A stretch of DNA of 64,000 nucleotides from Candidatus Micrarchaeia archaeon (GTDB taxonomy: Archaea; Micrarchaeota; Micrarchaeia; CABMEP01). The DNA lies in the NCBI GenBank assembly GCA_038886535.1, contig JAVZXS010000003.1, positions 1-64,000 on the forward strand. The letters run 5' to 3'. This document shows, in pieces, positions 6,001 to 12,000 of this stretch. The stretch's first letter is position 1. Each line of letters starts with the position of its first letter. A program made the position numbers.

Positions 6001-9000
6001 CCAAGTACAAGGTGCAAGCTGCTTTACTAATTCATCTGGAAGATGCATTGCAGGTGAAGATAAGGCAGGAGAATATCTTGTGCTTGTTAAGTTTACAGAT
6101 CCAGTAACTGGAAAGATAGTTTATGCAGGAAAGAACAAAGATCAGGATGACTTCAAGAGAGTTCTTGTAGACGATTATGAGGATGACGACGACATATATG
6201 AAAGAACAACTACAAAGCTTGCAACTAAGTCAATCCACATAATAGAGCACATAGACAAGAAAGGAGATATCAAGTATCAACCAGCAAGGAAACTCGTAGT
6301 ACTTGGATCTGAGCTTGATGTTATAACTCCTGATTACACCGTCTGGGATGGAAAAGAATACGTATATCCATTCATATTCTCTTCAGAGGATGAATGGACA
6401 GTAGATGTATGCATGTATGTACCAGAGGGATATGAGATAGCAGAAGGATACAACTGCACACAAACATTCATTGCAAACGAGAGCAAGGTAGTTGCATTTA
6501 CAATAAAGGAAGTGAGCAGCCCAGAGCCAGATATGAATGTGCAACTAACTGCACAACACAAAGGAGTTGTAAAGACAATAAGCATTCAAATACCTGGCCA
6601 AAGAGTGAAAGGATTTGAGTGGATTACACTATTGCCATTCGCATTGCTCTTAGTGATAGCAGCAATAGTAGCATACGCAATGAAGAAAAGGCAGTAATAT
6701 CTCAAAGCTATTTTTCTATTTAATTCATTTTTTCTATTGTTTTTCTTTTTATTTTATTCTTTTTATTTCATTACTTGTTTAAATCTTATTTTGTTATGCT
6801 ATTAAATTTAGCTAATTTTAAAGTTTTTAAACCTTTATTGACATAATTTCTTATGCAAGAAAATGACAAGCAGGAATTGTCAAAAGAGGGCAGAAATAAA
6901 AGCTCTAATGGAAAGAATGGGGATGGAACAGAATTAAAGTTTCAGCTTGCAAGAATAAAGGCAATAGGGACAAAAATAGCCCAAAATCCACAATTCTGGC
7001 AAGGTCTTCTTATTGCTGGAGGATTCATTTCATTTGCTTTGTTCTTCCCATTCTATGGAATTCTTTTGCCTCTGATTGCAATAGCTCTTTTCATAATAGG
7101 CTATCATCATCCAATTTTTGGAACAGTTGCTTCATTCCTTTGCATTCTTCCTGCAGTATCCTATCAGGTTCCTGTCTTTTCTTGGCTGTTTCTCCTTGCA
7201 ATAGGTCTGGTTTTCTTTCTCGTATTCAACAATTGGTATATCATAGCAGCATTGCTTTTCATGATCTCAGCACCATTTGCCCCACAGCCCTATAATCTTA
7301 TTATGGGACCTCTTACAGTATTAGTTTTCGCAGTCACATCTCTTTATCTTGGATCAAAGAAGACTCTTTATGTTCTTCCGGTCACATTCTATATTATACT
7401 TTTGCTTAGTGCATTCTGGAATGTTCAGAATTCAGCTTTCCTTACTCTTTCATCAAATTCTTTTGTAACCAATCGAGCTTTAATTCCTTCTAAATATGAG
7501 CCAGAAATGCTGGTTCTTGCAGGAGAGATTCCAAAGGCAATAGGAAACATGTTTTCACCAGATGTAATGAGAGAGGTCAATACTCTAATCTCAATCTGGG
7601 GCCAGGCAACAATGGATCTTTTTTTCGCTGACACAGGTTTGCTTCAAATAATTGCATGGTCCATTGTTTTCTTTCTTCTTGCCTATCTTCCAATAATACT
7701 TTATGGAAAATGGTCACAATTTGTTCCTTCTTTAGTTCTTCTTGCCTTGATACCGATTCATTTTATTTCTTCAGAACTATCTGGAACTGAATTTAACCTT
7801 ATGATAATTCCTTCTGTTGCGCTTACGATTGGTGTGATGTGGATACTTGATAGCTACAATATAAAATTGACAAAGGAAGAAGAGATTGTAGCAGAACAGA
7901 AGAAAGGGTTGTTTGGAATTCCTGGATTGACAGATTTAAGTGTTTCAAAATCAGGTCCAAAGAGTTTAGATGATGTTGGAAATTATGATTCCACAAAAGC
8001 AGAGATAAAAGAATCCATCCTTATGCCTCTACGCCATGGCGAATTGTCGGTTCTTTATGGAATCAGGCCGCCAAAGGGAATTCTTCTATTCGGTCCTCCA
8101 GGTACAGGTAAGACATTGTTAATGTCTGCATTGGCAAAGGAACTAAGAATGCATTTTTATTATGTAAAGACATCCGATATTCTTGGTCAATATCTAGGGG
8201 AATCAGAAAAGAATATTTCAAAGCTTTTTGATGTAGCAAGAAAGAATGCTCCAGTTGTTCTTTTCTTTGATGAAATAGATTCTATAGGAAAGAAAAGAGA
8301 CTTTTCAGGATATGGGGAATCAGATCAAACAGTTGCAAGGGCATTAAGCGTTTTACTTGCAGAGATGGATGGAATGAAAGAGAAAGAGCAAGTAATAGTG
8401 GTAGCAGCAACAAACATACCGAACCAACTTGATCCTGCTTTATTAAGACCTGGAAGATTTGATAAAATAATCTATATGCCACCACCAGATGCAAAAGGAA
8501 GAGAAGCAATATTTAAGACAGTTACTAAGAATCTTCCGCTCTCAGATGATGTAGATTTCGAAAAGCTTGCAAAGATGACAGAAAGATTTACAGGGGCAGA
8601 TATTGCAAATGTGTGCCTTGAAGCTGCAAGAAAGGCTGCTCCTTCTGCAATGGAGAAGGGAAAGGTTGTCCCTATTACGATGGAGGATTTTGTTTCTGTA
8701 ATTAAATCAGTTAAACCTTCAGTAACTTTTGAAATGCTTGACGACTATCAGAAATTCAGAAATGATTTTGAAAGAAGAACAATGAGAGAAGAAATAAAAC
8801 CTGTTGAAGAACGAGTAGTTACTTGGGATGATGTTATAGGAATGGAGGATATAAAGAAGGCATTGACTGAGGTAATCGAACTTCCTCTTCTTCATGAAGA
8901 TGAATTGAAGAAATATAACATTCAACCCATCAAAGGAATTCTTCTCTTCGGTCCACCAGGTACAGGTAAGACCTATGTAGTTAAAGCAGCTTCCCATGAG

Positions 9001-12000
9001 CTTAATGCAAAATTCATAAGTCTTACTCCATCAGATCTTTCAAGATATGGTTACGAGAATGCAGTAAAGTTAATAAGAGAAACTTTCAACAGGGCAAGAG
9101 AGAATGCGCCTGCAGTTATCTTTATAGATGAACTCGAGTCTATAGCACCATCTCGTGAAATTTATGCCTCAAAGATAACTGAAGATATTGTTTCAGAAAT
9201 ACTTCAGCAGATGGATGGCTTAAAGAATCTGAAAAACGTAATTCTAGTAGGAGCAACAAATAAGCCATCAATGATAGACAGTGCTTTACTAAGACCTGGA
9301 AGATTAGACAAGATATTTTTTGTAGGTCCTCCAAATGAAAAAGATAGAGCAAAGCATTTCCAATATCATCTTAAGGGAGTTCCAGGATCAGAAACAATAG
9401 ATTATGAAAAACTTGCAGAAGAAACAGAAGGATTTACACCTGCAGACATTGCAAGCATTTGTCAGGAGGCAAAGATGCAGGTTGTGAAAAGCAAGATAAG
9501 CGGGCAGGGGGAGATTCCTGTAACAACAGAGATGGTTTTAGAAATAATCTCAGAGAGAACTCCTTCAGTAACAGTTCCAATGCTCAAGGAATATATTCAA
9601 TTCGTCAAAGAGTACGGCGAGAGAAGATAACAAATAGAATAAAAGATATAGAATGACATTGGCGAGCCGGTAAGAAACAAAACAAAAAATGACACAAATC
9701 ATAGTAATTAATATTAATCTAATTATAGTTAAATAATCCAATTAATTAATCTAATAAACTCCATATGTAACAAACTACAAATGTAACTACTATAATAACT
9801 TCCTGTATAATCAAATTATGTTTATATTTCGATTGTATATTTCATATTGATTATTATTATATTGCATGTGTTTTATATGTTCCCTCCTTGTATTTTCATT
9901 CTAATACATTTTCATTTACAGAAGAGCAAGAAAGATGTAGACTATTTTATTCCGGGGAAAATACGTCCATGAACGATAAGGTTTTACGTTAATTGACTAT
10001 AGAACATAGGTCATATATTAACAAAAGTTAATAAAAAAAGCAAAGGTTTTTAAATACTTTAAATAAAGTAAGGTTAGATCCTTATTAAAGGGTCTAAGTA
10101 ATTTGCGCATATAAATGCCGCAAGGCACGCGCAAATGACGATATACATTGAGGTGATATCGTGAAGAGTATAAACGCAAAGAAATTGGCGGCTGTAACTC
10201 TTGGAGCAGCTCTCTTAGGCGCTTCATTCGTAGCAGCAGCACCAATTATGTATAAGAATACCCAGATAATAAATGAACAGGGTAAACCAGTAGTTAAAGT
10301 AGTAGTAGGTGCAAATGCAAAGGCATCTGATGGTGTTGCAGCAGCAAACATCGCAGCTGTCATTGGTAGCTTAGCATACAAGACACAAACTGTTTCTGCA
10401 CAGTTAACAGGAACTCCAACATGTTCTGTAACTGGAACAGGTTCTGGAACATGTCCAGTATCTGACAAGAAGGTTACATTGGAGATCACAACACCTGGAA
10501 CTGCAACAGTATCAGGAGGTTTCGGATTCAAGACATACGGATATGGTTTCATAGACAATGTCGGAACAACGGAAGATGATCAAGTTGCAAATTCTTCAGT
10601 TCCAAAGAAGATAACTGGAGACAACATGGCAGCACTTGCTGACTACAAGACATCAATCTCATCTGTTTCTGGTTCATTCACAGAGACACAAGAGATGTAT
10701 GTTGAACAAACATCAAACCCAGCTTTGTGGGATACAGACAAAGGCAAGTATTCAATACAACCAGATGAAATAAAGTATTTCATCAAATTTGATCATGACA
10801 CATTCGGAGGAGTTCCAGTATGTGTTAAGGAGAGCGAACTTGTATCAGGAAACTGCTCTGTTGACAACAAGATTGACAGACAGAGATTAAAGATCAAGTA
10901 CCTTGGTGAGGAATGGATAATCTCTGACATGACAAATGGTACATCTGTAAAGATTGCAAAAGAAGCAACACCAGCACAGATTGTTTATGCAGGTCAGGAA
11001 ATAGCAGCAGGTGCATACAAAGTTAAACTTGCTGACTTAACCATTCCATATGGTTCAACTGACTCACAAGCAATCGTACAAATATACGATGCAAATGGAA
11101 ATCTTGTGAAGGAAGATACTGCAGCAGCAGGTGCAACAAAGGAAATAACATTGCCAAATGGCGATAAGATTTCCTTACACATCTATAAGACTGCACCAGG
11201 TCTTACAACTGCAAAATGGGCAGAGATGGCAGTTTACACACAAGAACTCGAATTAAAGAATGGTCAAACAGTTGATGACGACAAGAACAAGAACTGGACA
11301 GTTACACTTGGTTGGAGCACATATTCTGGCAGCGCCATTACAAACGGTGTCTTAAAGAACATAACCCTGAAGAGAACATCATTTGACGATGTCTTTGAGG
11401 GAGAATCTGTGAACATAATCGAGTCACCTGCACCATACCAGTTCAAATTCTCTGGTTGGACATTGACAGATGCAAACAGAGATACCCTTAAAGTAGAATG
11501 GAAGAGAATATCCAGCTACTACTATCCATCAACAAACACAACAGCTGCCTCAATAGATGACTCTGATTCAAGAGACTTCATCTGTTTCACATCAGACAAG
11601 AAGGCATTTGGATCGAGCTTCACCTATACAAACATCTCCAACAGCTCACAGACACTTACTGGATCTTTGGAAGATGACAGAAGCCAAATTTGTTATGGAA
11701 TAAAAACTGGATATGTGATGTACGACAAGCCAGACAAGGGTTATGTGCTTGCGGCACAGATCAACTCTTCAAACAGCAGTGCATATGTTCAATTTGACTA
11801 CAAGATCAATGACGACTCTTCTTACGACCACAAATTGAACATTTCTGTTGTAGATGCAACAAAGGCAAACGTATCTATATACGAATACCTTTTGAAGAAT
11901 AAATCACAAAGTGGTTACTTCAAGTTTGTTGCAGATCAGCCAAACAGAAGGTTCGTAAACAATCCAACTGACAATTCTGAATCAAAGGTTAATGTTGGAT

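Follow-up and report, generated by a model that had tools for sequence, protein, structure and literature searches.

The window (the whole 64,000-nucleotide stretch of DNA that was analysed) encodes a protein, P0001, in which a membrane domain is followed by two intact AAA modules, D1 and D2, after which the protein stops, without a protease domain. This layout upholds the description, in the genome-wide survey's note, of a double-ring AAA protein integral to the membrane. The positions of these parts and of the neighbouring genes are summarized in Table 1. No earlier description of the fusion was found in the literature searched, which takes in a minority of subscription journals.

Table 1. 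Features at the membrane AAA locus
Feature	Position	Strand	Basis
Gene for 1382-aa upstream surface protein (TSP3 repeats, OmpL47-type barrels, C-terminal TM)	2549..6697	+	
Membrane AAA ATPase gene, P0001 (925 aa)	6853..9630	+	
Ten-helix membrane domain, residues 46-334	6988..7854	+	structure model, K/R alternation, conservation
Six-helix part TM5-TM10, residues ~122-348	7216..7896	+	alignment to ECF S-components, model range 94-320
Outer loop TM7-TM8, ~72 residues	7420..7635	+	
AAA module D1, residues 372-622	7966..8718	+	motif reading in 41 rows
AAA module D2, residues 658-904	8824..9564	+	motif reading in 41 rows
C-terminal YGERR, without HbYX motif	9613..9630	+	
S-layer protein gene	10161..12632	+	PF05124 and TIGR01564 over cut-off
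Gene for 685-aa protein (no Pfam match; N-terminal hydrophobic segment, two later TM helices)	12857..14914	+	

We aligned 41 rows of the family and read the motifs of both modules. The Walker A and B motifs, the sensor Asn and both Arg fingers of D1 were invariant, and the catalytic motifs of D2 were retained in 39-40 rows; D1 and D2 are predicted to form two ATPase-competent rings. The aromatic residue of pore loop-1 (Y447 in P0001) was present in D1 in 35 of the 41 rows, the other six having no aromatic residue. At the same position of D2, Gly was found in 34/41 rows and an aromatic residue in none (0/41), compared with its presence in all 20 soluble CDC48 proteins read. Given that a Tyr follows one residue later in 17/41 rows, the D2 pore loop may not be inert. 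An HbYX tail, a frequent though not invariable CDC48 feature, was carried by only 1 of 40 membrane AAA proteins, as against 19 of 20 soluble CDC48 proteins.

The fusion was present in 129 of the 151 Micrarchaeota genomes sampled and absent from six whole families. The survey's note was thus right that it is widespread in this phylum beside the soluble CDC48, and went too far in calling it near-universal. Nor is it specific to Micrarchaeota, since the same fusion was also found in Thermoplasmatota and Thermoproteota, which had gone unnoted, as had the non-AAA fusions and the S-layer linkage described below.

The structure model and the positive-inside alternation of K and R residues gave ten helices with both termini inside, rather than the eight hydrophobic segments counted earlier; that this multi-pass domain belongs to no Pfam family was borne out. 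Its family motifs are PFYP and YQ at the outer face, GS(K/R)(K/R) inside and (Q/E)xxxW in TM8, and 26 of the 54 homologues had N-glycosylation sequons in the outer loop that joins TM7 and TM8. A search of a viral fold library gave no match, and all scores in the atlas feature searches were below 0.9. We also considered an intramembrane protease (rhomboid, S2P or CAAX), for which no invariant catalytic Ser/His, HExxH or Glu-Glu column was present; the nearly invariant residues were Q, G and S only, and the Ser is lost in distant members. A Derlin-like or membrane protease reading likewise lacked invariant catalytic residues, and no such row appeared in the fold searches, an absence that counts weakly against it.

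Full-length copies of the domain were found fused to KaiC-like ATPases (P0089, P0099 and L282), adenylate/guanylate cyclases (P0093 and P0112) and an HTH (P0092), and these fusions were confirmed by reciprocal scores of 24-96 bits, the best of 426 controls reaching 16.8. A Chloroflexi HEAT fusion (P0104) scored 13.8 bits, below that control, and is unconfirmed; the single-sequence model of P0099 had a pLDDT of 43 and was set aside. The ten-helix domain is a previously undescribed, portable membrane module. A stand-alone form, which the survey's note had left open as an alternative to fragments, is unsupported: strong matches without AAA modules were mostly truncated and the AAA part was present in 40/40 loci.

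Two independent models, one of them of a distant homologue, showed a likeness of the last six helices, TM5-TM10, to the fold of S-components, and the cytoplasmic location of both termini agrees with the N-in/C-in topology of S-components. The earlier judgement that this likeness lies within the range of chance probably undervalued it. The ten-helix domain had no Pfam match to ECF S-components or to the S-component-fold receptors (5TMR-LYT), from both of which it differs in its four extra N-terminal helices and long outer loop. The protein might then be a fused ECF-like transporter, with AAA rings in place of the ABC module and toppling of the S-like domain. Micrarchaeota are known to rely on hosts for nutrients, and fold and topology would fit. 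We nevertheless regard uptake as very improbable: AxxxA was absent from the consensus of TM5, the first S-like helix (the helix mapping being approximate), the extra helices and a covalently attached AAA ring would hinder toppling, and the cyclase, KaiC and HTH fusions point to sensing instead of transport. No ECF genes were found among the recurrent neighbours of the AAA loci.

The same fusions speak for a receptor-gated ATPase, in which the S-component-like half would bind a small ligand outside and switch the AAA rings, which would remodel a soluble or signalling target; the domain would then be a sensor here as in those fusions. Moreover, the whole domain matched a bacterial Ser/Thr kinase cluster in structure (TM 0.65 over 243 residues, a lead only), and S-component folds act as receptor domains according to PMC11109136, in whose main text the terms 'AAA', 'KaiC' and 'adenylate' do not occur. 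We hold this reading to be possible, at clearly less than even odds. Somewhat less probable still is a receptor-coupled motor, in which the ten-helix domain would be a sensor with an S-component-fold core that elsewhere drives cyclases, KaiC ATPases and kinases; here it would be coupled to a double-ring AAA of separate evolutionary origin, which would remodel surface proteins or the S-layer on an outside cue. One example of such a cue would be host contact in Micrarchaeota.

The survey's note had taken P0001 for a CDC48/p97 paralogue with a replaced N-domain. In the form weighed here, such a paralogue would have an ERAD-style role and extract membrane proteins for the proteasome. Identity to CDC48 was 38-43%, p97 and VAT were the best PDB sequence matches, and the top NCBIfam model was that of CDC48 (TIGR01243), at 512 bits below its cut-off of 803. 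However, identity was higher to SSO2420-type proteins (46-47%) and to Thermoprotei members (49%). In domain trees, which rest on small taxon sets of 35 and 43 rows, the D1 and D2 modules of the family were sisters (support 100/98); grouping its D2 with CDC48 D2 was rejected (p-AU 0.007), whereas grouping its D1 with CDC48 D1 was not (p-AU 0.128). When Vps4 was added, it formed a branch apart from CDC48 (95/86) with the D1 and D2 of the family. Because D1 and D2 are sisters apart from CDC48, HbYX is absent and the aromatic pore loop occurs in D1 only, the membrane AAA is probably not a modified CDC48, and its D1-D2 duplication probably arose separately; we consider the proteasomal role unlikely. 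The double-psi-barrel N-domain (PF02359) had no match at the AAA locus. A weak CDC48_N match in the same genome is an AMP-phosphorylase-like protein, as named by eye.

In both domain trees the membrane AAA grouped with SSO2420 and SSO2831 of Sulfolobus (D1, 98/93; D2, 98/91). Membrane-bound AAA (MBA) proteins have a short N-terminal anchor of about 50 residues and no folded N-domain; MBA1 and MBA2 were reportedly described in Sulfolobus solfataricus by Serek-Heuberger et al. in 2009. By elimination, SSO2420 and SSO2831 are most likely these two. Orthologues of SSO2420 were assigned by gene length and four neighbours, and those of SSO2831 by length and inventory only. None of the five Sulfolobales genomes searched contained the ten-helix domain, and a split gene for it was found in 0/5; a comparison of their anchor with TM10 detected no sequence likeness either (hhalign 0.5%). 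PMC3493965 cites MBA as a cluster held apart from CDC48. On these sequence comparisons, the membrane AAA is predicted most likely to belong to the archaeal MBA clade, of which the fusion is the putative full-length form, a little-studied membrane motor.

We then examined the gene neighbourhood. Of 112 genomes, 24 had an S-layer gene no more than 6 kb from the membrane AAA gene: 23/25 in eight Micrarchaeota families versus 1/87 in the others. The linkage may reflect inherited gene order. The S-layer query matched all 18 of 18 genomes without the membrane AAA, and S-layers can thus exist without it. A homologue of the 685-aa protein followed the S-layer gene in 11/40 loci; adjacency of the 1382-aa surface protein gene was not seen in other loci. 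In Thermoplasmatota the neighbours were of the same class but different: secreted and C-terminally anchored proteins, and vWA and PKD proteins. The genes of Thermoproteota (four neighbourhoods read) and Sulfolobales were not in surface-protein operons. Operons with secreted proteins, a small membrane gene immediately downstream in 20 of 45 loci, and fused ectodomains in some Thermoplasmatota members could indicate a Bcs1-like export or assembly motor, whose own membrane domains would form a ring through which surface proteins are pushed or chaperoned out of the cell. The neighbours carry ordinary signal peptides, as read by eye, and a channel of this kind could not be made by the Sulfolobales forms, with their one helix; we doubt that export is the function.

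We propose that the protein is a membrane unfoldase that is powered by D1 and acts on proteins of the cell surface, with the ten-helix module selecting or gating (probability about 40%). As a member of the MBA clade, integral to the membrane and probably hexameric, it would work as an unfoldase or dislocase, both ATPase rings being held at the cytoplasmic face with D1 proximal to the membrane. Recognition of a client or a cue, at the outer face or within the membrane, would fall to the ten-helix module, and D1 would grip the cytoplasmic end of the client and pull; classic AAA proteins are known to work by threading through an aromatic pore loop. D2 would hydrolyse ATP and serve, like that of NSF, as a scaffold or as the ring of exit. 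There is no proteasome-docking tail, and the client would presumably be released and not passed straight to the 20S particle. Gene context suggests as clients S-layer or TM-anchored surface proteins in assembly, turnover or repair. Against this unfoldase stand the rarity of the S-layer linkage outside the eight families, the persistence of GH57 (8/40 loci) and a glycosyltransferase (7/40) as well, and the non-essentiality of the SSO2420 and SSO2831 orthologues in S. islandicus.

With this clade, the orphan Sulfolobus MBA proteins gain a wide family that spans three archaeal phyla, and an architecture that is likely the ancestral one; the results point to a second origin of the archaeal double-ring AAA design, with its gripping ring beside the membrane. 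A new portable membrane domain is also defined. For Micrarchaeota, which have very few classic AAA proteins, this is a concrete candidate machine for building or remodelling the cell surface, the structure of host contact.

Compared with known systems, the membrane AAA shares with MBA-type proteins a tandem D1-D2 behind a membrane anchor, the absence of HbYX, the pore-loop pattern (KWYGESE in D1, xGYEG-like in D2) and the distance that separates Walker A from the last helix (medians 70-75 residues); where the Sulfolobales proteins carry a single N-terminal helix, the Micrarchaeota form has a folded ten-helix domain. With CDC48, p97 and VAT it shares two tandem classic AAA modules and a Vps4_C-like helix after D1, but it lacks their double-psi-barrel N-domain, KWVG pore loop in D2 and HbYX. 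NSF/Sec18 resembles it as a D1-driven double ring, and Msp1/ATAD1, FtsH and Bcs1 are anchored and extract or move membrane proteins; these have one, two or no anchor helices, in contrast to ten here, and the membrane AAA, which stops after D2, has no protease domain.

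In the 925-aa membrane AAA ATPase, the hydrophobic stretch (residues ~46-335) is followed by two AAA modules, D1 and D2. Both have intact SRH motifs; their Walker A motifs lie at residues 414 and 700, and their Walker B motifs at 469-474 and 755-760. Pfam gave AAA-type families only among the 25 of 41 matches listed, and the best NCBIfam model, CDC48, scored 512 bits, below its cut-off of 803. GC content was equal in both parts of the gene (N-terminal, 0.369; AAA, 0.375). Soluble CDC48 and PAN were not found in the motor's own assembly, which is 88% complete. Since CDC48 is present in both same-genus genomes, its absence is probably an assembly gap; one other classic AAA protein was detected there (see table).

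Locations of the motor gene and other features
Feature	Location	Strand	Remarks
Membrane AAA ATPase gene	window 6853-9630	+	single open frame, 925 aa
Pfam-less membrane protein after S-layer gene	window 12857-14914		685 aa
Pfam-less membrane protein after S-layer gene	window 14887-15585		
aeRF1 peptide chain release factor	window 15634-18384	-	split by intein with LAGLIDADG endonuclease and HTH
TPR-AAA-TM protein	own assembly (G000) C2:233474-236689	+	only other classic AAA of own assembly; TPR repeats, single AAA module, C-terminal hydrophobic helix; intein just after Walker A
Family protein	L037:631-6483		intein immediately after D1 pore loop; second intein ahead of Walker B
Family protein	L042:4778-8992		intein immediately after D1 pore loop
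KaiC fusion of the ten-helix domain	L280:6484-12508		preceded by second kaiC-like gene; Vps4-like and ESCRT-III-like genes within about 3.5 kb (named by eye)

A profile search with the membrane domain alone matched 125 of 151 Micrarchaeota genomes (the tallies include one unpublished genome, G029) and 68 of 85 genera, and a 54-row profile recovered four of the 26 missed genomes, giving 129/151. These searches gave no match in six of the 20 families (f10, 0/5; f11, 0/8; f15, 0/2; f16, f17 and f19, 0/1 each). In the 18 genomes of these families, all AAA matches at E ≤ 1e-30 were the soluble CDC48 locus, and the whole motor gene was therefore not found in them. The near-universal fusion described in the genome-wide survey's note is thus borne out for most genomes but not across all families; its co-occurrence with an ordinary soluble CDC48 agrees with CDC48_N above the cut-off in 149/151 genomes. 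Forty loci, picked to span families, were retrieved from 39 of the 125 domain-positive genomes. The domain and AAA shared a single frame in all 40, and 38 had two good AAA modules, the exceptions being L071 (D1 only) and L054 (decayed D2). Among 44 library matches at E ≤ 1e-30, 15 lacked Walker A, and 13 of these ended within the domain. Library protein P0044 is likewise D1-only, P0103 has a D2-like module only, and one genome (G010) has two copies of the family protein (L059 and L060).

The Walker A/B motifs, sensor Asn and both Arg fingers of D1 were invariant (41/41 rows), and the same catalytic motifs were retained in D2 in 39-40/41 rows. Pore loop-1 of D1 carried W, Y or F in 35/41 rows; in D2 the position was aromatic in none of the 41 and Gly in 34, with a Tyr shifted one place later in 17. 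Soluble CDC48 (n = 20) retained the pore aromatic in both rings. The family tail is YGE(R/K)-like, with a penultimate aromatic in 1/40 proteins, compared with 19/20 for soluble CDC48. As read from these motifs, the family has two predicted competent rings, with the grip in the membrane-proximal ring, and no proteasome tail; the sequences likewise establish the topology of the ten-helix domain (residues 46-334). Set against these differences from soluble CDC48, a CDC48-like ERAD role seems improbable, and a transporter more improbable still. The CSDIMSKWYGESE motif of family D1 also occurs in L140-L144, single-module AAA proteins of Bacillota whose N-terminal domain is lipoprotein-like and which also have TM helices. 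Proteins of ~900 aa labelled Bathyarchaeia (L146-L150; one record labelled bacterial) have two AAA modules, of which the second carries the canonical pore loop, and their C-terminal region is Lon-protease-like (read by eye).

The domain joined to D1-D2 was also found in Thermofilaceae and in many Thermoplasmatota, some of the latter with an additional signal peptide and ectodomain. A broader profile matched 24/201 Thermoplasmatota and 5/301 Thermoproteota genomes, the latter comprising three AAA fusions and two KaiC-type fusions (named partly by eye), both adjoining another kaiC-like gene. In loci L091 and L093, an upstream signal-peptide and TM gene, seemingly the ectodomain as a separate gene, overlaps the AAA start (by eye). 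Library matches also included domain fusions to KaiC (P0089 and P0099, labelled Nezhaarchaeales), nucleotide cyclase (P0093 and P0112) and HTH (P0092), and three more (P0077, P0078 and P0096) carried tails of no Pfam family. Against a reciprocal profile built exclusively from Thermoplasmatota and Thermoprotei rows, the median score of 54 Micrarchaeota domains was 38 bits (minimum, -12). The eight non-AAA fusions scored 24-96 bits and the 426 shuffled or reversed controls no more than 16.8; the motor ranked first among the ORFs of its own genome (28.7 vs 10.2). The PFYP, YQ and (Q/E)xxxW motifs were present through all domain groups. Because the cytoplasmic output varies, the domain may behave like a receptor or client-recognition module; the S-component fold is a precedent for a membrane domain swapping outputs as a receptor (PMC11109136). 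A ligand-gated ATPase with a different target would also use such a domain, and we regard it as unlikely, though the foremost alternative.

In the Sulfolobales, D1-D2 proteins of ~600 aa with a single N-terminal helix have the same loop pattern as the family, and were 46-47% identical to the motor, compared with 38-43% for any CDC48 tested. A concatenated quick tree separated the Micrarchaeota, Thermoplasmatota, Thermoprotei and Sulfolobales rows from CDC48 (100). In a careful 35-row domain tree (rooted on PAN, Vps4 left out), family D1 and D2 were sisters (100/98), and joining family D2 to CDC48 D2 was rejected (p-AU 0.007); these results speak against the survey's view of the motor as a CDC48 paralogue, although joining D1 to CDC48 D1 was not rejected (p-AU 0.128). 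When Vps4 and the second Sulfolobales protein were added (43 rows), family D1 (98/93), D2 (98/91) and Vps4 made one branch (95/86), and in D2 the second Sulfolobales protein paired with a ten-helix Thermoproteota member (100/97). The domain trees therefore favour a separate tandem duplication, and the single-helix forms were probably trimmed from a ten-helix ancestor, both with long branches and a small sample.

An S-layer gene lay within 6 kb of the motor gene in 24 of 112 genomes having both, with 23/25 in eight families and 1/87 elsewhere. The S-layer gene was followed in 11/40 loci by a homologue of the window's 685-aa protein, a candidate S-layer stalk or anchor; upstream neighbours included GH57 (8/40) and glycosyltransferase (7/40). 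A cultured Micrarchaeon has a documented S-layer protein of matching type, its anchoring left open in the available part of 10.1101/2021.04.28.441871. In the 45 related Thermoplasmatota and Thermoprotei loci, drawn by one query, neighbours included secreted or C-terminally anchored proteins: a single family lay upstream at 13 loci, vWA proteins occurred at 6 and PKD-type proteins were downstream at 18. At 20 loci the motor gene was directly followed by a small membrane gene. S-layer genes in all 18 genomes without the motor, and mostly metabolic Sulfolobales and Thermoproteota neighbourhoods, count against a fixed link. The motor would be a ring-shaped unfoldase: its ten-helix module would select a client or detect a cue, and D1 would pull on the client, supported by D2. 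Its clients are most likely surface proteins (probability roughly 0.4); an export motor, which secreted neighbours might also suit, is a doubtful reading.

MBA1/2, the membrane-bound AAA proteins of Sulfolobus, are reportedly described by Serek-Heuberger 2009 as two-module proteins with ~50-residue anchors. PMC3493965, which gives that work as its source, sets MBA apart from CDC48 as a cluster of its own. The six classic AAA proteins of a Saccharolobus genome (assigned by length and sequence) were PAN, Vps4 and two each of CDC48 and short-anchor D1-D2 proteins. The 606-aa protein matches S. islandicus M164_0230, the SSO2420 orthologue, in length and four neighbours, and the other matches SSO2831 by length; in PMC6249222, M164_0230 is listed as non-essential, and the SSO2831 orthologue had 33 insertions. 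No description of the domain-AAA fusion was found in literature searches read largely as listings, and the available parts of PMC5498576, 10.1101/2023.03.28.534520 and the PMC8975820 supplements do not mention it. Since membrane-anchored double AAA proteins of Sulfolobus are already known, the motor is a variant; what it adds is a new polytopic domain, a family of far broader reach and the favoured separate origin of the double ring.
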